This document shows, piece after piece, positions 2,297 through 46,699 of a DNA stretch of 64,000 bases. Origin of the DNA: a phage; the sequence record NC_101842.1. The stretch is one strand, 5' to 3'. The number at the start of each line of letters is the position of its first letter. Within the stretch, counting starts at the first letter, position 1. Made by a program: the position numbers and the translations under genes. The notes beneath the pieces were generated by a model, which worked only from the letters and a program-made list of their open reading frames with translations, did not search any database and was not told where the DNA came from.

Positions 2297-2854
2297 CATG
2301 TTGTGTCAGTTAGGTCACATTATGTCAGACAAGTTTTTCCCCTCTTTGTCAAGTGCTGCATGAAAAATTTACAAGCTTGTATGGTAGCATTTTTGCGGCC
2401 CTGTTTACATTCAGGAGTGTATGTATAATCCTTGGTGTGTGGGCGTTTAGACGTCTAGACGGTTGGAAGTATGCAGGTCAATATCTAATCTATTGGCTGC
2501 TAACTATATCCCACACAAATGATAAGAAATATAATTGTTATATGCGTAAACTGTAACTCATGTTATCAATCCCTGTATGTATCGCCAGTGGTGCGCATAA
2601 TGGGTATTATGTTAAATTGCCCGTAATGATAACTATTCTCACAATGATAGGTATTCTCATTCACCCCCACAAGATAGGTTGCAAATGTTGTGCCACTGTG
2701 TGAACGGCCTAGCCTATTAATTTGCCTCACTGCCTTGATATTTGAGAATTGTTATAAGAATGAGAAGTATTCCCATTTCGTCCGCCTGGCAGCACTCCTG
2801 TAGGTCAGGTCAAAATCGTGGTAGAATTGGGCCTGTTCAGATATTTCTGGCTGA

Positions 2855-4064
2855 CTCTTCAGGTCTGTGTGGGAAAAGCCAACCTCTCCGGCGGGGCATG
2901 GGGTCATGACGGGAAAATTGCAGGTCAATTAAAAAATTTACGTGGTGTATGAAGCGCTCTTCAGGTAAGGCATGTATTATGGGATGAAACCCTCTTCAGG
3001 CAATGATATTTGTGGGTGTGATATTTGCTGGAAAGCCAGATATGACGGGACTCCCGGCGGGGCAGGGGTAGTACAGACAGGGAAAATATGGAGGATGTGG
3101 TTGGGTAAATTGATCAGGCAGGTAGAGTATGGAATATGTTACAGGTATGTTAAATAGGGAGGCTGAATATCTGTAGGATTTGTGTGTAAAATCAAAGACT
3201 TAAGTGGTGTTGTGGTATTTTCTATAAATAATTCAAGTTTAATAGGTAATATTTGTCTCTATTCGCTTTGTGTGGTAAACAGATTCAGATGAGATTGGTT
3301 TACAAGTGTATACATAATATACAAATTAAAGATACAAGAAACCCCCCTCCCCCTTCGGCTACCATTCACCTTTTCCTCTGACTGGTACTTAAACACTTAT
3401 TCAGACTCTTCAGGTTATCACCCATATATCATATGGCAGTGACTGGTGTCCTCCGGCCCCTCTTTCGTCACCCGTCCGCTTCGCCATGCTAATGCCATAG
3501 CCAATGGTTCGGTTGTTCACCCTGCTCACTCAGGTGTATCTCCATACCCCTTCAAACCGAAGAGAACAGAAAACCCGAATTACTCGGTAAAAGAAAAGAG
3601 AAGAACTTAATTTTATCAGGATAGGCAAGAATGTCAAGGCATGACTGCTCACTAAACAAGCAAACAGTCATGTGTGGGAGGTAAGTGATTGTGGTGGTGG
3701 GAAATTTAGTTGAAAGATGTGCTACAGGTGCGCTTCCAGCACTTTAGCAGGGCAGCTAATTGTGTGTCAGTCCAGCGGTTCATCCTCTACTTCACTGAAA
3801 TCAATGTTCATGGTCTCTTCCCAACCATCGATCTCAGCACAAGAGTGGAGTTCTTTAGGACTTACTCCCAAAGCATCAGCAACAGAGTCCATATTTAACA
3901 CCTCTGGCAGGTATGATTCATCGAATTCAAGGTAAATCAGGCCACGAGTGTTGTCAGCTCCACCAAATATTTCTATCTTCATGAAATCTCCTCTGGAAAT
4001 GAGAGTGTGAACAGGGTTTTATACGTTCCGATGCACAGGAATTATGCACGTTTGCCTCTTCAGG
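2855..4064. repeat. dispersed 9-mer CTCTTCAGG (5 copies) plus duplicated CCGGCGGGGCA(T)GGGG block
   Basis: CTCTTCAGG at 2855, 2957, 2992, 3406, 4056; ccggcggggcatgggg at about 2886 and ccggcggggcagggg at about 3052. Confidence 0.65.
3767..3982 (-). CDS. hypothetical small acidic protein (71 aa)
   Basis: ORF track; N-terminus MKIEIFGG resembles other MK(I/V)E(I/L) small proteins in the array. Confidence 0.4.
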   Translation of the reverse strand: MKIEIFGGADNTRGLIYLEFDESYLPEVLNMDSVADALGVSPKELHSCAEIDGWEETMNIDFSEVEDEPLD

Positions 4065-4103
4065 TCATGCTTTAGCATGAGGAACCTGTGTGGGCTCGGT
4101 GCT

Positions 4104-4316
4104 TCATAGTCTACCACCCCTGAACTCTTCGTGCTCAGGCATAATAGAGAACCAGATATCTACGATGTCCTCCCACGTCAGGTCATCAGCCTCAGGATCT
4201 GTCTGGGACGAAGATGAAGAGTCCTCAGAATATAAGTTTTCCTCTTTAACTGGCTCATCCAAGGGACATATGGTCACTCCTTCGGATGTCTCTTCAGATA
4301 CATGTGTGTTGATCAT
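4104..4316 (-). CDS. hypothetical small acidic protein (70 aa)
   Basis: ORF track; very acidic, Ser-rich. Confidence 0.35.
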   Translation of the reverse strand: MINTHVSEETSEGVTICPLDEPVKEENLYSEDSSSSSQTDPEADDLTWEDIVDIWFSIMPEHEEFRGGRL

Positions 4317-4402
4317 GTTCCACCCGTGAGTATTCCGGCAACAGCCGCTATGGAAGTAATGATCATCAGGATCACCACTAAAACTTCAGACAATGTTCTC
4401 AT
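4313..4402 (-). CDS. putative 29-aa single-pass hydrophobic peptide (MRTLSEVLVVILMIITSIAAVAGILTGGT)
   Basis: hand-translated; ATGA start/stop overlap with ORF 4104-4316; promoter-like TTGACA-17-TAGTAT upstream on minus strand. Confidence 0.3.
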   Translation of the reverse strand: MRTLSEVLVVILMIITSIAAVAGILTGGT

Positions 4403-4618
4403 TGTGTATTCCATATTCTCCAAACTGTGTGGATACTATCACGGTAGCGGTAATGTGTCAACAGAAACGCCGCGAGGGTTTGGTTAAAATCCGAGCGTAT
4501 GGTGATTTGGGTCAAAACGGACGTGCGTTCTCGCTACGCTCGAAAGAGAGATTTGTTTGTAGGAAGCTCTTAAACGCTCTGTAATGAGATTATCTGTCCA
4601 AGGTATGCAATCGTGCAC

Positions 4619-4650
4619 CAGATAAAGAAAAGGACGCCACAGAGCGTCCT
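4619..4650 (-). terminator. rho-independent terminator-like hairpin (minus strand)
   Basis: 7-bp stem aggacgc/gcgtcct; T-rich tract follows on minus strand; after ORF 4675-4986. Confidence 0.45.
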
Positions 4651-4674
4651 AGGTGTCTTAAATTTGATATTTTG

Positions 4675-4986
4675 CTATACCCATGAGGGCTTATCAAGGT
4701 TGGAGTAGCTGAAAGGTGTCAAAAGGTGACTGTCAAAATCTCTCAAACTATCTAAATCTTTTTCCTCGTCCTGACACCATCTGTGCCTACATTTATTGTT
4801 GTAGTGCATAGAATGCATAGCGTTCTGCAATTTAACAGGCACAAGTGATTCAGGAGTAGATAGTATTGTTGGGTATGCCAGAACCACCTCAAACAGTGGA
4901 AACACATCGAAACTAAAGTCTACCTCTGCAGAGGTTGATGGCATGTAAGAGTATTTAGCCGCCTTTGTAGACATAATCCACCTCAC
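4675..4986 (-). CDS. hypothetical protein (103 aa)
   Basis: ORF track; 4-nt overlap with upstream ORF. Confidence 0.4.
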   Translation of the reverse strand: MRWIMSTKAAKYSYMPSTSAEVDFSFDVFPLFEVVLAYPTILSTPESLVPVKLQNAMHSMHYNNKCRHRWCQDEEKDLDSLRDFDSHLLTPFSYSNLDKPSWV

Positions 4987-5309
4987 ACAGGTTTGATAAT
5001 ACCTTTACCGAATAACTCTTCGTATCTAATCTTATCCGGATCCCACTCCTGGATAATTTCGAAGACAATATCCAACCCTGGGATAATCACTTCTCCAGTG
5101 TCGAGCTTAGCAAGAACAAAACCGGAAGGTTGAATGGTTTCCCAGTTGCGCCGATTGGAATAGAAGACCTCGAAAATATCGCCGACCTTTATCTGTTGAT
5201 CAAGATGTTCAAGATTCTCTTTCATATAGACGCAGCGGATTTTTCGTGCAGGCCATAGACCACCTGCATCACGTTCATTTAGCTCTTTTACAGTAATCGG
5301 TATACCCAT
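4983..5309 (-). CDS. hypothetical protein (108 aa)
   Basis: ORF track. Confidence 0.45.
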   Translation of the reverse strand: MGIPITVKELNERDAGGLWPARKIRCVYMKENLEHLDQQIKVGDIFEVFYSNRRNWETIQPSGFVLAKLDTGEVIIPGLDIVFEIIQEWDPDKIRYEELFGKGIIKPV

Positions 5310-5332
5310 CTCAAATCTCCTTCATAGATAGT

Positions 5333-5362
5333 AAAAAGAGGGGCCCAAGCCCCCCCTCTTTG
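5333..5362 (-). terminator. terminator-like GC hairpin flanked by A-run and T-run (possibly bidirectional)
   Basis: aaaaagagggg-cccaagcc-cccctcttt between ORFs 5366-5671 and 4983-5309. Confidence 0.45.
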
Positions 5363-5365
5363 TCA

Positions 5366-5671
5366 TTATTCTACAGAGCGTTTGAACAGAATGTCTGCCT
5401 CAGACATGTGCTCAACCTCTTCTTCGATTTTAGCGCGACGTTTTTCAGCCTCATAGCGAATATCGAACTCGGTAGCCACCAGAGATTTGATGAATTTAGG
5501 AGAATACAGGTGATCCTGCTTCTCAACGAGAATGATATCCTTAATGGCATCTTTCAGATCTTTAATCTGAAGTTGGAGTTCTACCAGTTCTTCGATTGTT
5601 TTGCGAAGGCGATCACGCTCTGCAGTGTCAGAAGGAAGAGAGGTGAACAGTTCAACTTTAGATTTAGCCAT
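5366..5671 (-). CDS. hypothetical coiled-coil protein (101 aa)
   Basis: ORF track; charged heptad-like sequence. Confidence 0.45.
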   Translation of the reverse strand: MAKSKVELFTSLPSDTAERDRLRKTIEELVELQLQIKDLKDAIKDIILVEKQDHLYSPKFIKSLVATEFDIRYEAEKRRAKIEEEVEHMSEADILFKRSVE

Positions 5672-5699
5672 AGTAAGAGTCTCCTTATATTGTTTTAAA

Positions 5700-5951
5700 T
5701 TAACGTTCTACAAAAATACCGTTCAGTTCAATAACCAGGAATTTCTGGTCTTCACTATCGTCTCGTGCCAGCACCTCACAGACGTATCGGTCATCCCCAT
5801 CATCATCGCAGTCAAATACAAGACTGAGGACTTTATCATGGTAAACCTTCGCCACTACCGCCTCGTAAGTATTGCCGATTGTGAATCCAAGATAATCTCC
5901 GATGCATTTGACAACAACATGGTCTCCAGCATTTAAGTCAATCTTCGTCAT
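5700..5951 (-). CDS. hypothetical protein (83 aa, start refined to MTKIDLNAG)
   Basis: internal ATG preceded by aaggag RBS; listed longer ORF start lacks RBS. Confidence 0.4.
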   Translation of the reverse strand: MTKIDLNAGDHVVVKCIGDYLGFTIGNTYEAVVAKVYHDKVLSLVFDCDDDGDDRYVCEVLARDDSEDQKFLVIELNGIFVER

Positions 5952-6106
5952 TACTGCGCTCCTTGGGTAATAATACTGTATGTAAAACTTTAACCAGAGA
6001 TGTGAATAACGCCCCAAAACACACCGATAGCGCTAAAACAGACAAGGCCATCATTAAAGCTTCAGTAAAATCAGTCATTCCTCACCTCTTGTTAGTCACT
6101 ATACTA

Positions 6107-37192: not shown

Positions 37193-38476
37193 TCATTCCA
37201 GAACCTCCCAAGTGTCTGGGTTAACATTCCGGACGCAGATACCGACAGGGAATTGGTAGTTGTTGTCTTCTGTCCTTGCTTGATATTTGAAGGTGACAAA
37301 CTTGCCGATCATTTCCTGCATTCTGTCATAGCTACGCTCCTCGTGCGTACCTTTCATCTTCATTTTAACAACAACACCTTCCTTGTCAACACAGATAAGA
37401 ACACCTTCATCATTCTTATCTTTCTCAACGTCAATAACTTTCACCTCTGCGTCGTTGAACTTTTTCCATTTCAATGCTTCAGATGTTCGCTGACCATACT
37501 CATATTTACCGCAGAAATTACGCATGATAGTACCTTCATATCCTTCGGACATGAATATACCAACAGATTCTTCGCAATGATCAACTGTGTACGCAAGCTC
37601 TGCGTCAACAACCTTGATATGATCAAGCATCAGAGTGGTAACGGTATCCTCTGCATCCATAAGATCCTTGCAGCGTCCAGACTCTGTTTCTGGATCCCAC
37701 CACACCTTGTCGCTAGGAATATCAAAAATGTGATACTCCAGATCGTAGCTACAGTATCCACCGTAACGCAAATCATCACGAACAGGCTCAACATCGACAG
37801 GAATATCTACCTTGTTGAAGTTTTTGTATGTTGATAAGCCTGCCTTAATTGCTGCATGACGGCGTTTTTTATCTGCCTCATAGTCTTTATCGATCTCGGC
37901 CTGAATCTCTTCCTGTGTGCGCCACCGTTTAGCAAGAGACACTATTTTCTGCAAAGGAAGACCATGAATGTATAGTTCCCCGTCAAGTTGTTTAATCCCA
38001 GTGGTAGAATGGAAAGAACGAAGTTGCTCTAAAAGCTTTCCTTGAATAGGGTAGGACTTATTACCACGGGAAATAAATTTAGGCTCACCATTTTGGAAAA
38101 CAACAAGCAGACGAAGGCCATCTAACTTACGCAAGATCCAGCAAGGTAATTTAAGTGCCTTGCCACGCTTCAGGTAGTCATGCACCAGCATAGGTAAAAG
38201 ATCAACACCCTGCTCGCAATCTTCCATGTTTTCAACATACCCCAGACGGACTTGTTTTTCCCACTTGCTGATAGCCTCAAGCTCGGCCTGTTGCTCAGCT
38301 GTAGTCTCGTTGGCACGACCTACGTTTTTAGGTGTGCATACCGTCTCTTTGTACTGCAATTTACCGTCAAGCTTGCCAAACTCTACGATAACCTTTTCGC
38401 CATCAGTGAATACTTTCCACTGTTGGTAGCTGCCATCTTTGTTCAGTGCGTACAGTGTTGTTTTGATTTGATGCAT
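37193..38476 (-). CDS. ATP-dependent DNA ligase
   Basis: motif I KLDGLR, motif III DGELYIHG, motif IV EGTIMRNF, motif V KWKKF. Confidence 0.75.
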   Translation of the reverse strand: MHQIKTTLYALNKDGSYQQWKVFTDGEKVIVEFGKLDGKLQYKETVCTPKNVGRANETTAEQQAELEAISKWEKQVRLGYVENMEDCEQGVDLLPMLVHDYLKRGKALKLPCWILRKLDGLRLLVVFQNGEPKFISRGNKSYPIQGKLLEQLRSFHSTTGIKQLDGELYIHGLPLQKIVSLAKRWRTQEEIQAEIDKDYEADKKRRHAAIKAGLSTYKNFNKVDIPVDVEPVRDDLRYGGYCSYDLEYHIFDIPSDKVWWDPETESGRCKDLMDAEDTVTTLMLDHIKVVDAELAYTVDHCEESVGIFMSEGYEGTIMRNFCGKYEYGQRTSEALKWKKFNDAEVKVIDVEKDKNDEGVLICVDKEGVVVKMKMKGTHEERSYDRMQEMIGKFVTFKYQARTEDNNYQFPVGICVRNVNPDTWEVLE

Positions 38477-38745
38477 TACTCGGCCTCTTCCTTAAAAATT
38501 TTAAACATCTCTTCTTTACTCATTACCAACCAGTCTCCCATAAAGTCAACTAACCAATCTCCCTGGTACAAAACCAAGTTGCCAAACGGCTCAACAAGCT
38601 CACACATGCGACGAATATCTCTGGTCCGAACAGGTGACGATGTAAACACACCTGTATCAATCCACCGTTGCAGATCAGATACTGATGAAGAGCTTCCATC
38701 AAACTGGTGTGCTTCTACAGGTTTAGCAAGATTAAATAACGGCAT
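38476..38745 (-). CDS. hypothetical protein (89 aa)
   Basis: ORF track. Confidence 0.4.
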   Translation of the reverse strand: MPLFNLAKPVEAHQFDGSSSSVSDLQRWIDTGVFTSSPVRTRDIRRMCELVEPFGNLVLYQGDWLVDFMGDWLVMSKEEMFKIFKEEAE

Positions 38746-39040
38746 TGCAGTCCTCCTTCTGTAGTAGGTCTTTTATAGGATAAACAAGTAAGTGTGGATC
38801 GGAATAACGTATAGTCCTATTCTGCCACACTATGAACTTTATTACAACCAAATTTACAATATCTTTATCACCATGTAGCCCAACACACACATTTGTCCAT
38901 ATTTTGTGGTTGAAGATCTTGCTATCGATGTAGATTTTAGTGTCAAACTTATCTTCCATTCTACCTATAAGTTTGATCAGCTCCTTCATCTGGTCGCCAA
39001 ACACAGCATCTTTTTCAAGATCTCTGGAATGCTTGTACAT
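38732..39040 (-). CDS. hypothetical protein (102 aa)
   Basis: ORF track. Confidence 0.4.
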   Translation of the reverse strand: MYKHSRDLEKDAVFGDQMKELIKLIGRMEDKFDTKIYIDSKIFNHKIWTNVCVGLHGDKDIVNLVVIKFIVWQNRTIRYSDPHLLVYPIKDLLQKEDCNAVI

Positions 39041-39102
39041 AACTAACTACCTCACTGCATACTTTCCATAATAAGTAAAGCCGGGTAATCCCGGCTATGT
39101 TG

Positions 39103-39816
39103 TTAAATATACTCTGTTACATCCTTGAAGCTCGAAGGCTTCATAATCTTACCTTTACTGTCAAGGAATATAATAACTTTATTACCGTTGTAGAACTCCT
39201 CTTTAGCAACGAAACCTTCGTAGCGACCACCAAAACGACGCTCAAGATCTTCAATCTCTAACTCTATGAGCAATTCAGTAGACATATCTGCACTGGCACC
39301 GTGAGAATATCGTAGATGGTTGATCCGTGCAAACTTGCTGTCATTAGATTTGAGAACCTTCCGCATCATCCCACACACATCGCCGCGAAGCTGGAACAGC
39401 AAAGCTGTTGACAACTCCGCTAAGCGGTAAGCTGACGCTCTTTGCTTGGATGTGTTTTTCGCAGCGATCAGTGTATCATAGAACTCACCGATCTTGAACT
39501 TAAGACCTCGTGGATTATCAAACAGGTTTGACCACTTTTCGTGATTATCATTAACAAGATAAGCGGCATAACTTGTGACAACGTGAAGATCGCAGGCCTC
39601 TTTTAGCAGGTGATCTCCACCATCACCTTTCTCCAGCTCTTCCAAAACCTCATTGAACTCTTCCTCAATGAAGCTAAGCTGTAATTCGAATGGTGTGTAT
39701 GATTTTTTCACTTTAGCTGCCACACGGTTCCAGTTTTCCACCCAGTTGGCAGACCAAAGGTAGTTTTCAGGCTGAGACAGTTTTTCCAGGTTGTCGATCA
39801 GTTTAGTATTCAGCAT
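39103..39816 (-). CDS. MazG-like / all-alpha NTP pyrophosphohydrolase-like protein
   Basis: FIEEEFNEVLEEL...EACDLH resembles EExxE...ExxD metal-binding pattern. Confidence 0.4.
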   Translation of the reverse strand: MLNTKLIDNLEKLSQPENYLWSANWVENWNRVAAKVKKSYTPFELQLSFIEEEFNEVLEELEKGDGGDHLLKEACDLHVVTSYAAYLVNDNHEKWSNLFDNPRGLKFKIGEFYDTLIAAKNTSKQRASAYRLAELSTALLFQLRGDVCGMMRKVLKSNDSKFARINHLRYSHGASADMSTELLIELEIEDLERRFGGRYEGFVAKEEFYNGNKVIIFLDSKGKIMKPSSFKDVTEYI

Positions 39817-39829
39817 TAAAGGTCTCCTT

Positions 39830-40591
39830 TTAAAGTTCCATAAAGTTTTCTACAGTTTCAATAAATGCTTTATCAGAGAAAGCGTCAACAGCACCGTTAA
39901 ACCATACAGGGATCCCGCGATCCTCATATTGATAAAGGTCGCTACGTGAAATGCCACTTCCATCTGCACTCTGCGAGTCATACTTGTTTACAATCAGCAG
40001 TTTTGTGCCTTTACAAGTAGCAGGAAACAATTCCCAGTTAAAATTAATAACTGTGTTAGAACAACCTACTAGGATCACCATATCATTGCTTGTGAGAGAT
40101 GTCAACAGGTCATACATGTCTGTATACTTAGGAGCAACCTCACCGAAGAACACTACATTGGGCTTAACCCAGGTATACTTGCCTGTATCTACCTCCGTGT
40201 ATCCGATATTTTTAATTACATCATTACCTTCAGCATCTTCGTAGGTGATTTCAGGCAAATACCCGTGGACATGTAAAATATCTTCATGTTTTACACCAGC
40301 ACGCTCCAGCAAATCATCTACATTGGTGGTAAGGTTGATCACACGACCAGACCAGCGGGAATACCACTCAGCGATCCGAAGATGTGCAAGGTTAGGATCA
40401 ACACTGCCCAGAGCTACACGACGTGCATTGTAAAAGTCATGCACCTTATAGTAATTCTTGGCAAAGGTGTGGATGTTGCACACCTCATCGATGCTGAAAT
40501 TCTCCCACATTGCAGTGCTACCAGATCGGAAAGTGGGAATACCAGATTCAGCGCTCAAACCAGCACCGGAGATAATAATCAGTCGTCGCAT
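39830..40591 (-). CDS. Sir2/CobB-family NAD-dependent sirtuin-like protein lacking zinc-ribbon cysteines
   Basis: GAGLSAESGIPTFR, FYNARR, TTNVDDLLERAG, HVHG, PNVVFFGE parallel E. coli CobB; no CxxC pairs where the Zn module should be. Confidence 0.75.
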   Translation of the reverse strand: MRRLIIISGAGLSAESGIPTFRSGSTAMWENFSIDEVCNIHTFAKNYYKVHDFYNARRVALGSVDPNLAHLRIAEWYSRWSGRVINLTTNVDDLLERAGVKHEDILHVHGYLPEITYEDAEGNDVIKNIGYTEVDTGKYTWVKPNVVFFGEVAPKYTDMYDLLTSLTSNDMVILVGCSNTVINFNWELFPATCKGTKLLIVNKYDSQSADGSGISRSDLYQYEDRGIPVWFNGAVDAFSDKAFIETVENFMEL

Positions 40592-40599
40592 AAGTGTCC

Positions 40600-40950
40600 T
40601 CAGTAGATGTTTTGTTTAATCTCTATTCCAAACTTCTTGAATGAGTCAGCAGCAAGCATAAATTTACGAGCTGCCGATGGATTAGAAGTATGCACGAAAA
40701 TAATCACGTTGTCAATAAGTGGTGGCTTTCCGAATACAAGTTTCTCCTCTAGCGCAGAGAAGCAGTCGTACCCTTCAAGCACTTCACCTAGATCATTGTC
40801 AAAATACCACTCAGATACGCGTCTGTAGAGCTTTCTCTTATCATTAAGAAAATCCATAAACTCAGAAGAATTCTTTAGCCACAGAGCGTCTAGGAGTCCA
40901 TAATCTGACGGATCTCTAAAATCATCAAGCCACACAATCCACTTCTTCAT
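40600..40950 (-). CDS. hypothetical protein (116 aa)
   Basis: ORF track; ATGA overlap with upstream gene. Confidence 0.45.
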   Translation of the reverse strand: MKKWIVWLDDFRDPSDYGLLDALWLKNSSEFMDFLNDKRKLYRRVSEWYFDNDLGEVLEGYDCFSALEEKLVFGKPPLIDNVIIFVHTSNPSAARKFMLAADSFKKFGIEIKQNIY

Positions 40951-41882
40951 TGCATATAGTCCTCGTTGTGGAAATAGCAGTCAAGTATCTCACGGCGTTC
41001 CTGCTCCAGGAGGCAGTTCCATACATCCTCTGTGTAGTTGTTACGAATGAAGTTTACCATGCCGTAAAACTCTTCGTCAACACGTTTAAAGATATCATCA
41101 TCCCAAATCTTCCAAGCTTTACCCCTCATTACGGCCTTTCGTGCCAGATAGTATGGAGACTTGATCTTCAACTGCAGATCATAAGGGTAGTAAGGCTTAC
41201 GAATCATATATCCTTCACCTCTTGTTTCTGCAGCTAACTCTTTTGCATAGCTGAACGGAATTTCACGCACAGTGTGAGGACGTTTTGCACCAAGGTATTT
41301 GGCAATCCCATCTAAAGCGGCTTCTGGTAGCATTATTCCAGAATCATTATATCTGCAACCTATCAAATATGCGCCATGATCTTCCTGAACAATATGCGGA
41401 TCTGAAGGGTGACAAATTTCAAACATGAATGTCATGTTTTCATTGCCCATAACCTTCTTGATAAGATCTAAATTACCGCATTGCTCCTGGATGGTTTCCT
41501 TTGCAAGGTTACAATATGGGGAATCAAGAGACCCGGTTGTTGAGAACAATAGTTCACCTTTATGAGATGACACCACACCAAGGAATCCGTTCTTTTTCTC
41601 TACCGCCGTCACAAGCTTATTGTCAGGCAGGTTGGTGGAGTTTTCTCCCAAGTTAAACACTTTTGTGAAGGGCCATGCCACAACATTTCCTTCATTACCG
41701 ACAACAATGCCTCGGCACTCCAGTAATCGAGGAGACAAATGCCATAAGTTGTTGTAGAATACTTTTCTGGCATATTTATAGATCTTTAACCCAAGATCTG
41801 GGTAATATCTGCTGGTTACAAGACCTTTGTCAACTAGGTCGTCTGCATTAAAATACTTCATCATACGTTCCTCATTTGTCAT
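40947..41882 (-). CDS. RNA ligase, T4 Rnl1-like
   Basis: LSPRLLECRGIVV and KVFNLGEN match T4 Rnl1 LPDALECRGIMF and KFFNLNEN; motif I lysine in VEKKNGFLG. Confidence 0.7.
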   Translation of the reverse strand: MTNEERMMKYFNADDLVDKGLVTSRYYPDLGLKIYKYARKVFYNNLWHLSPRLLECRGIVVGNEGNVVAWPFTKVFNLGENSTNLPDNKLVTAVEKKNGFLGVVSSHKGELLFSTTGSLDSPYCNLAKETIQEQCGNLDLIKKVMGNENMTFMFEICHPSDPHIVQEDHGAYLIGCRYNDSGIMLPEAALDGIAKYLGAKRPHTVREIPFSYAKELAAETRGEGYMIRKPYYPYDLQLKIKSPYYLARKAVMRGKAWKIWDDDIFKRVDEEFYGMVNFIRNNYTEDVWNCLLEQERREILDCYFHNEDYMQ

Positions 41883-41925
41883 TTTGTCCCTTTATCCTGC
41901 CACACAAATAACCCAGTGTCAACAC

Positions 41926-41954
41926 TTGAAATTAACAAAACAGTTAGGTATACT
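41926..41954 (+). promoter_or_regulatory. sigma70-like promoter TTGAAA-17-TATACT
   Basis: consensus-like hexamers, 17-nt spacer, about 30 nt upstream of kinase start. Confidence 0.55.
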
Positions 41955-41982
41955 ATCATTGAAATTAAAACGGAGGGTTACT

Positions 41983-42390
41983 ATGTCTAAAATGCTATAT
42001 ATCGTGCGTGGTCTACCAGGGTCTGGCAAATCAACACTGGCAAATGCGCTATCTTTAGAAGGTCTGTACCCACATTTTGAGAACGACATGTTCTGGTACG
42101 ACGATGACGGCAATTACAACTGGGATGCAAGTAAAGTAACACTTGCAGCAAAATGGTGCAAAGATCACGTAGAAGATATGATGCGTATGGGATACGACCG
42201 TATCGTGGTAAGTAATACGTTTACAAAAGAAAAATACGTGCAAAAATATATTGACATGGCAATCAGCTATGGGTATAGTTATACCGTAATCGTGGTTGAA
42301 AACCGCCACGGTAATAAAAGCATTCATGCTTCAGACGAGGTTGTGGATCGTATGGAGCGCCAGCTTAAAAACTGCATCAAACTTAAATGA
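41983..42390 (+). CDS. polynucleotide 5'-kinase-like P-loop kinase
   Basis: LYIVRGLPGSGKST resembles T4 Pnk kinase N-terminus; start refined to ATG after acggaggg RBS. Confidence 0.65.
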   Translation: MSKMLYIVRGLPGSGKSTLANALSLEGLYPHFENDMFWYDDDGNYNWDASKVTLAAKWCKDHVEDMMRMGYDRIVVSNTFTKEKYVQKYIDMAISYGYSYTVIVVENRHGNKSIHASDEVVDRMERQLKNCIKLK

Positions 42391-42397
42391 GGAATGT

Positions 42398-42952
42398 ATG
42401 AAATACTTTGTAACAAGCGACACACACTTTCTCCACCAGCGGGTCATGGAGTTTGATTCATGTCAAAAACACAGATCTCAATATGATCACAATCTTGACA
42501 GTATGAATGCGGGAATCATCACCAAGTGGAACTCTGTTGTGTCACCTGCAGACACTGTGTTCCACCTGGGAGATATTGCGTGCACTAATGATAAGAATAT
42601 CAACAACTTACTTCCAGATATTCTAAATATGTTGAACGGACATATTATTCTTGTTCGTGGCAACCATGACACAAGGACGACTGTCAGAATTATGAAAGAG
42701 TTCGGTCATGAGGTTGTAGATTATTACGAGCTTCGCCACAACAAGAATTTGATCTGTATGAGCCATTACCAGTTTGCAAAGTGGAACAGAAAGCCTCACG
42801 GATCAGTCCAACTGTTCGGTCATGCTCACGGAACCACACAACAGTTGTTTGGCAGACAGTTTGATGTCGGTTGGGATGTGTGGGGGAGACTCTTACCATT
42901 AGAAGAGGCATACCGTATTGCAATGAGTTTTGCTATTGACAGCGGGGAGTAA
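42398..42952 (+). CDS. calcineurin-like metallophosphoesterase
   Basis: SDTHF, GDIACTN, GNHD, GHAHG motifs; start refined to MKYFVTSD. Confidence 0.7.
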   Translation: MKYFVTSDTHFLHQRVMEFDSCQKHRSQYDHNLDSMNAGIITKWNSVVSPADTVFHLGDIACTNDKNINNLLPDILNMLNGHIILVRGNHDTRTTVRIMKEFGHEVVDYYELRHNKNLICMSHYQFAKWNRKPHGSVQLFGHAHGTTQQLFGRQFDVGWDVWGRLLPLEEAYRIAMSFAIDSGE

Positions 42953-45886: not shown

Positions 45887-45961
45887 GCCCTGTTAGCTTA
45901 GTGGATAAAGCAGCGGCCTTCTAAGCCGTTGACACTGGTTCGAGTCCAGTACGGGGTGCCA
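45887..45961 (+). tRNA. tRNA-Arg (anticodon TCT)
   Basis: hand-folded cloverleaf: acceptor gccctgt/acggggt, anticodon loop cttctaa, T-loop ttcgagt, encoded CCA. Confidence 0.7.
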
Positions 45962-45965
45962 AATT

Positions 45966-46052
45966 GGGGAGTTATCCCGTAGGGGTAGCGGTGTAGACTG
46001 TAAATCTATTGTCATTGCGACTCGGGTGGTTCGACTCCACCACTCCCCACCA
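45966..46052 (+). tRNA. tRNA-Tyr (anticodon GTA), long variable arm
   Basis: acceptor ggggagt/actcccc, anticodon loop ctgtaaa, T-loop ttcgact, encoded CCA. Confidence 0.75.
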
Positions 46053-46166
46053 AATTTATAGTTTTAAATGCATAAATCATACAGATAATGGCATTGATAT
46101 TTATCGTCGTTTATACTAGTCACTAACTGCTCGAAAATCAGTGTCATTATTAGTATTGTTTATAAA

Positions 46167-46257
46167 TGAGGGTAGGGAGCAATGGTGCTCAAGCGGTCTT
46201 GAAAACCGTCCCGTTGAGGATGACTTGATGATGGTTCGATTCCATTACCCTCAGCCA
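46167..46257 (+). tRNA. tRNA-Ser (anticodon TGA), long variable arm
   Basis: acceptor tgagggt/accctca, 3-bp D stem, anticodon loop cttgaaa, T-loop ttcgatt, discriminator G, encoded CCA. Confidence 0.65.
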
Positions 46258-46355
46258 TATTGTTGACCTTGTAATTAAGCGAAAGCCGGAAGCAGAACCG
46301 GATTATCAAATGTTACAGTCGTCATCGCCGACTAGCAACATGGTCAACATACTGA

Positions 46356-46452
46356 GCTAGGTAAGCCCTTTGGCAAGGGCGAGGATTTTTAATCCTGAAA
46401 ATAGACGAGGTAGTCGTTGAATACATAGGTGGTTCGATTCCATCACCTAGCA
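46356..46452 (+). tRNA. atypical tRNA-like element (97 nt)
   Basis: perfect 7-bp acceptor gctaggt/acctagc, canonical T-arm, D-arm-like hairpin, but irregular anticodon arm and about 29-nt variable region; no CCA. Confidence 0.4.
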
Positions 46453-46459
46453 CCTTTTT

Positions 46460-46535
46460 GCTGATGTAGCACAATTGGTAGTGCAATTGATTTGTAATCA
46501 ATAGGTTGCAGGTTCAAGTCCTGCCATCAGCACCA
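46460..46535 (+). tRNA. tRNA-Thr (anticodon TGT)
   Basis: acceptor gctgatg/catcagc, anticodon loop tttgtaa, T-loop ttcaagt, encoded CCA. Confidence 0.75.
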
Positions 46536-46536
46536 T

Positions 46537-46611
46537 GGCCCTGTAGCTGGAAGGTTCAAGCAAGCGACTCATAATCGCCAGACGGTGGTTCAATTCCACC
46601 CAGGGCCACCA
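46537..46611 (+). tRNA. tRNA-Met or tRNA-Ile2 (anticodon CAT), elongator type
   Basis: acceptor ggccctg/cagggcc with G1-C72, anticodon loop ctcataa, T-loop ttcaatt, encoded CCA. Confidence 0.65.
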
Positions 46612-46622
46612 AATAATAAATA

Positions 46623-46699
46623 CTCCGCGTAGCTCAGCTTGGTAGAGCGCCTGATTTGGGATCAGGAGGTCGAGTGTTCGAATCACTCCGTGGAGACCA
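46623..46699 (+). tRNA. tRNA-Pro (anticodon TGG)
   Basis: C1-G72 start, D-loop agcttggta, anticodon loop tttggga, T-loop ttcgaat, encoded CCA. Confidence 0.75.

Follow-up and report, generated by a model that had tools for sequence, protein, structure and literature searches.

A neighbourhood containing a phage-encoded sirtuin was described by Iyer, Burroughs, Anantharaman and Aravind in 2022 (PMC9503650, section 3.7.3) as the type 2 sirtuin neighbourhood of "Escherichia phage V5 / Proteus phage Mydo", with V5 as the prototype. Its sirtuin was predicted to remove 2′-phosphates from RNA in the manner of KptA/Tpt1, and the sirtuin system of jumbo phages was reported to have a Nudix pyrophosphatase in a comparable slot (PMC9503650). 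The rationale for the cyclic-phosphate-processing cREC domain has been given elsewhere (PMC7824862). No experimental study was found in the literature on phage sirtuins.

Here, we analyzed a 64,000-nt stretch of phage DNA (NC_101842.1; hereafter the window), in which the features at positions 39103-40591 were followed up. The window contains a type 2 neighbourhood as defined by Iyer et al. (2022), and this very cluster was predicted there to be an NAD-dependent cassette for RNA repair (PMC9503650). As a genome-scan finding it adds little, since the genes are annotated and the literature covers both neighbourhood and hypothesis. The present analysis adds the family-wide absence of zinc ligands together with a change of TQN to TTN in the sirtuin, a pyrophosphatase that tracks DNA ligase, and a fold of this pyrophosphatase that is closest to dimeric dUTPases.

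The locus and its phage

Over the studied stretch, the window was 100% identical to the Vequintavirus phages isim, nomine and CarlMeissner, and its phage is a Vequintavirus (rV5-like Escherichia coli phage). Both genes under study are already annotated in these published phages, and over 100 genomes with the same or nearly the same sequence carry such annotations. Positions 39103-40591 are filled by two close minus-strand ORFs, 39830-40591 (253 aa) and 39103-39816 (237 aa), which form the last two genes of a minus-strand unit with the order Rnl1-type RNA ligase, cREC, sirtuin (Sir2) and NTP pyrophosphohydrolase (PPase). The packing of this unit is operon-like: the RNA ligase and cREC genes overlap by 4 nt, cREC and Sir2 are separated by 8 nt, and Sir2 and PPase by 13 nt. 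Shine-Dalgarno sequences precede both ORFs, namely GAGGA before the sirtuin, overlapping the stop codon of the upstream cREC gene, and AAGGAG before PPase. A kinase-like gene and a metallophosphoesterase gene, transcribed divergently, adjoin the four-gene unit, and all six genes lie inside 39103-42952. A block of phage tRNA genes is located near the RNA ligase, kinase and phosphoesterase genes. The features are as follows.

37193..38476, minus strand: ATP-dependent DNA ligase, 427 aa (Pfam DNA_ligase_A_M, OB_2)
38476..39040, minus strand: two small conserved ORFs, 102 aa and 89 aa, between PPase and DNA ligase (PHROG 7684, 14585)
39079..39096, minus strand: GC-rich hairpin with T-rich tail, resembling a terminator at the end of the four-gene unit
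39103..39816, minus strand: all-alpha NTP pyrophosphohydrolase of the MazG/HisE/dimeric-dUTPase superfamily, 237 aa
39830..40591, minus strand: Zn-less class-III-like sirtuin, 253 aa (Pfam SIR2 6.9e-28; PHROG 2162; CobB/SIRT5 as best PDB sequence and fold matches)
40600..40950, minus strand: cREC (cyclic-phosphate-processing receiver-like) protein, 116 aa (Pfam PF20274 1.8e-13)
40947..41882, minus strand: T4 Rnl1-family RNA ligase, 311 aa (Pfam RNA_lig_T4_1 6.4e-15; PHROG 562 1.3e-66)
41983..42390, plus strand: P-loop polynucleotide-kinase-like protein, 135 aa (Pfam AAA_33 8.2e-11, Zeta_toxin 7.5e-5; ATG at 41983 after GGAGGG)
42398..42952, plus strand: calcineurin-like metallophosphoesterase, 184 aa (Pfam Metallophos_2 3e-6, Metallophos 5e-6; PDB 1XM7 5.5e-11)

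The hairpin has a 7-bp stem with six GC pairs and lies 6 nt past the PPase stop codon; it is a consensus match only, and sites of this kind are in total as numerous in the region as expected by chance. In cREC, residues D9, D10, D51, T88 and K96 occupy receiver-like positions as read from its sequence. Among PDB sequence searches with the kinase, the metallophosphoesterase and the RNA ligase, 1XM7 was the sole informative match.

The sirtuin and the pyrophosphatase

The 253-aa protein is a member of the Sir2 family with the NAD-binding motifs and the catalytic histidine, scoring 98.2 bits against PF02146 (gathering cut-off 24) and matching PHROG 2162 at 1.5e-108. Its best solved relatives by sequence were E. 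coli CobB (1S5P, 3e-21) and then SIRT5, and a Foldseek search with its AF2 model (pLDDT 90.8) also returned CobB first (E 2e-18, TM 0.84). Residues invariant in 67 sequences included F21, R22, Y54, R57, N90, D92, H109, G176, S178 and N202, as well as the F148-F149-G-E151 stretch, within which G150 is not among the invariant positions. H109 is the catalytic histidine and Y54-x-x-R57 the class III anion-binding motif, both invariant in these sequences. C38, likewise invariant, aligned with an alanine of CobB and SIRT5 (Ala86 in SIRT5), where it provides a small residue, and the protein thus carries both sequence features of class III sirtuins. It is acidic (pI 4.9), which is atypical for an RNA-binding enzyme.

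The first-pass annotation, made from the sequence alone, had stated that the NAD-binding and catalytic motifs of CobB are kept and that the four cysteines of the zinc module are lost. The former was borne out by the invariance of F21/R22, N90/D92 and H109, with TQN(I/V)D, changed to TTNVD, as the single deviating canonical motif. The latter proved correct as well: the only cysteines are C38, C177 and C193, residues 110-150, which align to the Cys-bearing zinc module of CobB, contain none, and the four-cysteine module of canonical sirtuins is accordingly absent. Across 119 homologues, this segment had no Cys in 69, one in 48 and two in 2. In the structure prediction, which had been proposed as a check, three β-strands are kept at the zinc-ribbon position. 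Jumbo-phage relatives (L062 and L063) retain CxxC...CxCC. In the sirtuin clade, the zinc site is lost together with the replacement of Q by T in TQN, and both the small domain and the NAD pocket may accordingly be altered.

Against all seven NCBIfam CobB models, the sirtuin remained under the cut-off; its best score with the equivalog models (NF040867, NF001753 and others) was 122.6 bits versus a cut-off of 243. The clade gave 2 MAG matches among 185,579 species genomes versus 975 among 50,697 phage records and is essentially restricted to phages. A true host-derived CobB orthologue was rejected on these two grounds.

The ORF that follows the sirtuin, previously called MazG-like, is indeed an all-alpha NTP pyrophosphohydrolase, a divergent member of the MazG/HisE/dimeric-dUTPase superfamily whose helical bundle bears the metal-binding motif EExxE...ExxD. 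Its only Pfam match was PRA-PH (PF01503) at 13.7 bits, under the gathering threshold of 21.3, with no match to MazG (PF03819) above threshold; among 70 relatives, 49 matched PRA-PH and 15 matched MazG (E < 0.01). A C-terminal β-hairpin carries the invariant K223 and K226, the lysines of GKIMKP. By fold similarity the protein is nearest to dimeric dUTPases. A closer subset of the 70-sequence alignment was used as the query in searches for PPase loci, and DNA ligase was found upstream of PPase in 30 of the 33 loci. PPase tracks DNA ligase rather than the sirtuin.

Gene context and candidate functions

To place the sirtuin in its wider context, 62 IMG/VR loci holding it were compared. An RNA-end-healing enzyme stands beside the sirtuin in 41 of them. 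Both Rnl1 and the kinase were present within 6 kb in 13 loci, where the kinase lies beside the RNA ligase and the gene order is unlike that of the window; a metallophosphoesterase and DNA ligase are added in 12 of these, and a metallophosphoesterase is present in 15 Sir2 loci. In 28 T5-like loci, a HAD_SAK_2 "RNA-repair" phosphatase (PF18143, 4e-20), non-homologous to the healing enzymes of the other loci, is encoded instead, less than 1 kb downstream of the sirtuin. A zinc-containing sirtuin on a 607-kb contig also has an Rnl1-family ligase two genes away. RNA-end-healing neighbours recur in unrelated phage lineages, and the locus comparison supports an association of the sirtuin with RNA-end healing. 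HAD_SAK_2 and cREC are RNA-repair domains by prediction only. Much of the synteny between rV5-like and Mydo-like phages may reflect common ancestry.

Other arrangements were also observed. DNA ligase directly follows Sir2 in Mydovirus-type loci, the two small ORFs (102 aa and 89 aa) accompany the cluster in 11-12 loci, and at the locus L060, a NAMPT gene is followed after about 0.5 kb by a distant homologue that likewise lacks zinc ligands. Sir2 is found directly beside PPase in Vequintavirus loci only. The cREC-metallophosphoesterase-Rnl1-kinase-ligase-PPase cluster occurs without Sir2 on several contigs of about 27-150 kb, some of them phi92-like. Seven such loci were recorded (L084, L087, L089, L092, L094, L100 and L101), L084 and L101 being on phi92-like contigs of about 150 kb; at least five contigs with a Sir2-less cluster carry Sir2 elsewhere, tens of kb off where both positions are known. 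An obligate pairing of Sir2 with the MazG-like gene was rejected on the basis of the Vequintavirus-only adjacency, the association of PPase with DNA ligase and these seven clusters, and the partnership implied by the first-pass annotation is weak.

We tentatively read the sirtuin/PPase pair as the last two genes of a cassette that heals and seals RNA ends, with tRNA/RNA repair as its most likely role. The target would be RNA, such as tRNA, broken by host anticodon nucleases or other metal-independent nucleases; the kinase and the phosphoesterases would heal the ends, and Rnl1 would seal them. With NAD+, the sirtuin would attack the leftover RNA phosphate (2′-PO4 after opening of the cyclic phosphate) as KptA/Tpt1 do, so that nicotinamide is set free and an ADP-ribose cyclic phosphate arises as by-product, and cREC, possibly with PPase, would open or degrade the cyclic-phosphate and ADPr products. 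The RNA 2′-phosphate as substrate, the product and a part for PPase in the same pathway are points that we only infer. It seems rather unlikely to us that the Zn-less sirtuin is, specifically, a nucleic-acid-directed Tpt1/KptA analogue, which would transfer ADP-ribose onto an RNA 2′- or other terminal phosphate in tRNA repair, with the class III pocket holding phosphate instead of succinyl-lysine and with cREC and PPase clearing the by-product.

A CobB-like protein deacylase role is a strong rival. All sequence determinants of the sirtuin also fit an ordinary class III protein deacylase, the Y-x-x-R motif and C38 making up a succinyl/malonyl pocket. The protein would then be an NAD+-dependent protein lysine deacylase of the CobB/SIRT5 type, removing acetyl, succinyl or malonyl groups, in which zinc ligation has been lost and which acts on host or phage proteins, its genomic position being incidental or regulatory. 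Possible targets are the neighbouring RNA and DNA ligases, which need an unmodified active-site lysine for catalysis; Sir2 abuts the ATP-dependent DNA ligase in Mydovirus-type loci, and a mycobacterial Sir2 has been reported to take part in Ku/LigD end joining (PMC3102665). CobB and SIRT5 as nearest relatives in both sequence and fold, together with the invariant H109, acyl-carboxylate motif and C38, are consistent with such an enzyme. On the other side, we weighed the score far under every NCBIfam CobB cut-off (122 versus 243 for the best), the confinement of the clade to phages, the RNA-end phosphoesterases beside the sirtuin in about two-thirds of loci in two non-homologous versions, and the coupled loss of zinc ligands and TQN glutamine with the altered small domain and NAD pocket that it suggests. 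On balance, deacylation appears possible though doubtful. The repair reading has difficulties of its own: the T4-type ligase of the cassette is already accompanied by a kinase and a metallophosphoesterase, and the T4 Pnkp/Rnl1 set works without removal of a 2′-phosphate. The acidic pI of the sirtuin, the Sir2-less clusters and a possibly ancestral synteny also speak against it.

The first-pass annotation had further proposed a sirtuin that counters NAD-depleting immunity, either through the NAD pool or through ADP-ribosylation of proteins of the host or its defences, in partnership with the MazG-like enzyme. This is improbable. Sirtuins do use up NAD+, some ADP-ribosylate proteins (PMC9503650, section 3.3.2), and the homologue L060 is close to NAMPT. 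Nevertheless, a phage-borne NAD consumer would worsen NAD depletion rather than relieve it, and the conserved catalytic histidine and acyl/anion pocket are those of transfer enzymes, not of simple NADases. The PADLOC defence-system models, including ThsA, DSR1/2, SIR2-HerA and the Sir2-type pAgo class, gave no match to the sirtuin at E ≤ 0.01, and a defence-type NADase sirtuin was rejected. The annotation of the closely related genome FFH2 contains no NAD-salvage, Nudix, macro, KptA, NAMPT, PRPP-synthetase-like or NMNAT genes; a linkage to NAD salvage in the phage was also discarded, NAMPT being seen only at the distant locus L060. The earlier functional reading (deacylation, ADP-ribosylation, NAD pools) is generic and blind to the RNA ligase, cREC, kinase and phosphoesterase neighbours.

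As for PPase, the chances are evenly balanced that it works independently of the sirtuin in dimeric-dUTPase-like house-cleaning of dNTPs (dUTP or other non-canonical dNTPs) along with DNA ligase, ThyX and RNRs, its adjacency to Sir2 being an accident of Vequintavirus gene order. Against this reading, the dimeric-dUTPase motif is ExxDxxHF, from which the motif-2 context CDLxVV of PPase departs; no more than 8-13% of residues are identical to those of dUTPases, and the PPase model has a pLDDT of only 75. Moreover, the sirtuin is also present on 22 of the 34 contigs carrying the PPase family, and the Nudix enzyme in the comparable slot of the jumbo-phage system (PMC9503650) makes a role of PPase in clean-up of ADPr derivatives possible.

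If the published prediction is true, about 2% of sequenced phages (975/50,697 records), including T5-like, rV5-like, phi92-like and jumbo phages, carry such a sirtuin. It would perform NAD-dependent RNA-end processing, a catalytic role never demonstrated for the sirtuin fold, and would form part of counter-defence against tRNA-cleaving host immunity. Action on RNA, which has been predicted in print (PMC9503650), would be a first for any sirtuin. The proteins are small, their E. coli phages are easy to handle and several are in the BASEL collection, and the hypothesis is directly testable with RNA oligonucleotides and NAD+.

Comparison with known systems

PPase differs from dimeric dUTPases, MazG and HisE in its 8-17% identity, its scores under the Pfam gathering thresholds and its extra C-terminal β-hairpin. 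The sirtuin shares with CobB/SIRT5 the Rossmann fold and small domain (TM 0.84 to 1S5P) and the motifs GAGxSxxSGIPxFR, N-(V/I)-D, catalytic His, VVxFGE, G-x-S and Y-x-x-R; unlike them, it has no zinc cysteines, although the three strands are still there, reads TTN instead of TQN, has a distinct stretch of 50 residues at the C-terminus, and belongs to a phage-restricted clade under the NCBIfam CobB cut-offs. With KptA/Tpt1 it would share, according to the proposed analogy (PMC9503650), an NAD+-dependent attack of a phosphate oxygen on C1″ with release of nicotinamide, and the RNA ligase/kinase/phosphoesterase context is alike. However, KptA/Tpt1 have the ART fold (PTS_2-RNA domain), with no homology to the Sir2 fold of the phage sirtuin, and the relation is therefore a functional analogy at most. 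As in the T4 Pnkp-Rnl1 system, an Rnl1-family ligase, a 5′-kinase and a 3′-end phosphoesterase are encoded together near tRNA genes, whereas in the window the kinase and the phosphatase are encoded by different genes, the latter being a metallophosphoesterase and not a HAD enzyme, and cREC, sirtuin and NTP-PPase genes are added. To the type 2 neighbourhood of Iyer et al., the window is identical in content: sirtuin, T4-like RNA ligase, cREC, nucleotide kinase, MazG-superfamily PPase and calcineurin-like phosphoesterase.

Gene layout and phage identity

Two minus-strand ORFs fill 39103-40591, encoding a sirtuin and, behind it, a pyrophosphatase. Good Shine-Dalgarno sequences precede both genes: that of the sirtuin (GAGGA) shares bases with the stop codon of the preceding cREC gene, and that of the pyrophosphatase (AAGGAG) lies 7 nt ahead of its ATG. 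The intergenic spacings Rnl1/cREC, cREC/Sir2 and Sir2/pyrophosphatase are -4, 8 and 13 nt.

Features of the sirtuin region (coordinates, strand, description)
42398-42952, plus, calcineurin-like metallophosphoesterase, divergent
41983-42390, plus, P-loop polynucleotide-kinase-like protein, divergent
40947-41882, minus, T4 Rnl1-family RNA ligase, upstream
40600-40950, minus, cREC domain protein (PF20274, 1.8e-13), upstream
39830-40591, minus, sirtuin, 253 aa (Pfam SIR2, PHROG 2162)
39103-39816, minus, pyrophosphatase, 237 aa (PHROG 671)
39079-39096, after the pyrophosphatase stop codon, GC-rich hairpin with T-rich tail (consensus match only)
38476-39040, minus, two small conserved ORFs of 102 aa (PHROG 7684) and 89 aa (PHROG 14585), downstream
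37193-38476, minus, ATP-dependent DNA ligase, 427 aa, downstream

Taken together, the Rnl1, cREC, kinase, metallophosphoesterase and further neighbours make this neighbourhood an RNA end-healing and sealing cassette, a context that the first-pass annotation had missed. The Pfam adenylation-domain match of the DNA ligase is restricted to residues 285-338, leaving outside it the N-terminal ~280 residues, of which the first ~100 are beta-rich. In 11-12 distant loci the two small ORFs accompany the RNA-repair/ligase cluster, with the 89-aa family located just behind the DNA ligase. Six tRNA genes and one odd tRNA-like call form a block (45887-46699) 3 kb beyond the metallophosphoesterase. The odd call, a 99-nt ARAGORN 'tRNA-???' with a four-base anticodon (atcc) at 46356-46454 (plus strand) amid Arg-TCT, Tyr, Ser, Thr, Met and Pro tRNAs, might be a pseudo-tRNA, a tRNA with an intron or one resembling frameshift suppressors; Vequintavirus FFH2 and MiataMamis carry no tRNA annotation at the matching position.

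Over the gene pair, the DNA showed 100% identity with the Escherichia phages isim, nomine, CarlMeissner and vB_Eco_Alma, and 120 phage records matched it at 90% identity or more; the phage is therefore a Vequintavirus, an rV5-like myovirus. The matching records annotate the sirtuin gene as 'Sir2 NAD-dependent deacetylase', and its neighbour as 'nucleotide pyrophosphohydrolase', 'hypothetical protein' or, wrongly, a second 'Sir2-like protein'. About 18-25 unannotated 'Campylobacter phage' records (GenBank MG0656xx; C12, C14, A116, A135, D1 and others; host C. jejuni) were 96-100% identical to the E. coli Vequintavirus genes (39103-40950), and C13 matched T5-like phages; these are probably mislabelled or contaminant assemblies.

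The sirtuin and its zinc module

The sirtuin matched Pfam SIR2 with 98 bits and PHROG 2162 at 1.5e-108, and its nearest solved structures were the class III enzymes E. coli CobB (1S5P, 3e-21) and SIRT5. In a 67-sequence alignment the invariant residues (S16, F21, R22, W29, C38, F53, Y54, R57, R58, N90, D92, H109, G110, F148, F149, E151, G176, S178 and N202) spanned the NAD-binding GIPxFR, N-x-D, catalytic His, VVxFGE substrate-loop and G-x-S motifs, and included the class-III Y-x-x-R pair, with which SIRT5 and CobB bind a succinyl/malonyl carboxylate. C38 aligned opposite the small Ala that completes the succinyl/malonyl pocket of these enzymes. The sole departure from the canonical motifs was TTNVD in place of TQN(I/V)D.

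Only three cysteines (C38, C177 and C193) are present, none of them in the stretch aligned with the CobB zinc-ligand region; among 119 homologues this stretch held no cysteine in 69, one in 48 and two in 2. The AlphaFold model (pLDDT 90.8) placed three strands (110-118, 124-128 and 142-146) where the zinc ribbon would be, and superposed best on CobB (E 2e-18, TM 0.84), then on archaeal Sir2-Af1 and SIRT5. The zinc-less CobB-like sirtuin of the first-pass annotation was thereby borne out, whereas its functional interpretation found support in part. Two distant relatives on very large contigs (L062, 279 kb; L063, ~607-608 kb) keep TQN together with CxxC...CxCC, whereas the zinc-less relatives have TTNVDD, so zinc loss and the Q-to-T change go together. 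The protein fell far beneath all NCBIfam CobB equivalog cut-offs, and PADLOC returned no match to defence sirtuins.

The clade was found in 975 of 50,697 phage records, from T5-like, Vequintavirinae, Mydovirus and phi92-like phages, phage 7-11 and Vibrio/Yersinia/Salmonella jumbo phages, and when 185,579 species genomes were scanned with a sequence pattern it was recovered in two MAG contigs only; it is thus essentially phage-only.

Comparison of related loci

Among 62 IMG/VR loci collected with the sirtuin, 13 had Rnl1 as well as the kinase within 6 kb, mostly on ~140-150 kb contigs with a few shorter or partial, and 12 of these also had the metallophosphoesterase and DNA ligase. Their gene order is unlike that of the window; in Proteus phage Mydo it runs metallophosphoesterase ... 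Rnl1, cREC, kinase, small ORF, Sir2, DNA ligase, several ORFs, pyrophosphatase. In Mydovirus-type loci the DNA ligase starts at the sirtuin stop codon. Another 28 loci, T5-like and without a ligase, had the HAD_SAK_2 'Swiss-army-knife RNA-repair' phosphatase (PF18143, 4e-20) downstream of the sirtuin, either adjacent to it or separated by less than 1 kb. An RNA-end-processing enzyme therefore stands beside the sirtuin in 41 of the 62, about two thirds. This arrangement, which takes two non-homologous forms and recurs in phage lineages unrelated to one another, is the best support for an RNA-repair role.

A third neighbourhood, with no obvious tie to RNA repair, was seen in ten phi92-like, 7-11-like and unclassified loci (L032 at 2712-6010, L033, L038, L039, L045, L048, L051, L055, L056 and L058), where a phrog_757 'DNA methyltransferase'-like protein precedes the sirtuin; in L032, conserved unknowns (DUF7275/DUF7277, phrog_8514 and phrog_9509) also lie ahead of it. 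Further neighbours with a relation to NAD or ADPr were seen at distant sirtuin homologues: a NAMPT gene ~0.5 kb upstream of a zinc-less one (L060, 4057-5493 and 5959-6705), a nucleoside 2-deoxyribosyltransferase-like gene directly downstream of the zinc-containing sirtuin of L062 (6001-7198), and an Rnl1-family ligase with an arginase-family gene upstream in L063 (3582-6708).

The pyrophosphatase showed a different linkage: it followed the DNA ligase at a distance of 0.2-2.1 kb in 30 of 33 loci analysed (34 examined), nearly all within 1.7 kb, and in L061 a canonical short MazG occupies the same slot. Seven loci (L084, L087, L089, L092, L094, L100 and L101; L084 and L101 on phi92-like ~150-kb contigs) have the cREC-metallophosphoesterase-Rnl1-kinase-DNA ligase-pyrophosphatase cluster without Sir2, which occurs elsewhere on the same contig in five, at ~24-32 kb in those cases with both positions known. 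Five loci (~118-141 kb contigs) have the DNA ligase, pyrophosphatase and metallophosphoesterase only. Direct Sir2-pyrophosphatase adjacency is confined to Vequintavirus loci, so the pairing emphasized in the first-pass annotation is the weakest link of the cluster.

The 'MazG-like' label itself is correct at superfamily level. The ORF had no significant Pfam match of its own; its PHROG match was 671 'nucleotide pyrophosphohydrolase' (5.7e-22). Searching 1.84 billion representative proteins with a profile gave 163 relatives, and in a set of 70 relatives PRA-PH (HisE) was matched by 49 and MazG by 15. Against PDB sequences the family profile found HisE, AF_0060 and MazG only, all on the EExxE...ExxD segment. 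E53, D76, N158, K161, K223 and K226 are invariant, and in fold the closest proteins are dimeric dUTPases. Given this fold, the linkage to the ligase, and a phage that has ThyX and RNRs and no annotated dUTPase, an independent dUTPase-like house-cleaning role has an even chance.

Possible functions of the sirtuin

The published RNA-repair model is tentatively the most likely reading. The sirtuin would attack a leftover RNA 2'-phosphate in an NAD+-dependent manner, releasing nicotinamide and ADP-ribose cyclic phosphate, and cREC, perhaps with the pyrophosphatase, would act next on the cyclic-phosphate and ADPr products. What has been observed are the identities of the genes, the conservation of residues and the context; substrate and product we infer. 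The main rival, an ordinary class-III protein deacylase, is possible at somewhat lower probability. It is favored by the retention of all CobB/SIRT5 catalytic and pocket determinants, by the acidic pI of 4.9, and by a cassette that already holds the T4-type enzyme set, which in T4 does not need 2'-phosphate removal. In a speculative variant of this rival, the sirtuin would deacylate the neighbouring RNA and DNA ligases at their catalytic lysines.

Manipulation of NAD pools or counter-defence, also raised in the first-pass annotation, is improbable and found no specific support, the FFH2 annotation listing no NAD-salvage, macro, Nudix or KptA genes. Possible NAD-reconstitution genes, a ribose-phosphate pyrophosphokinase and a PnuC-like NMN transporter, are annotated near the cluster in Mydovirus-type relatives (L066 1-383, Proteus phage Mydo; hit H101, Klebsiella phage vB_Kpn_K45PH128C2) and are absent from the FFH2 annotation.

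The feature is already known, being annotated in many genomes; exactly the same neighbourhood, with a functional hypothesis, was described by Iyer, Burroughs, Anantharaman and Aravind (Viruses 2022, PMC9503650, sec. 3.7.3), whose group had defined the cREC domain in a 2021 jumbo-phage paper (PMC7824862). Our literature search turned up no experiment in which a phage sirtuin had been tested. The value left in the feature is that its RNA-repair hypothesis is easy to test. According to its authors (PMC9503650), the sirtuin would be KptA/Tpt1-like, sharing with these enzymes the removal of RNA 2'-phosphates.
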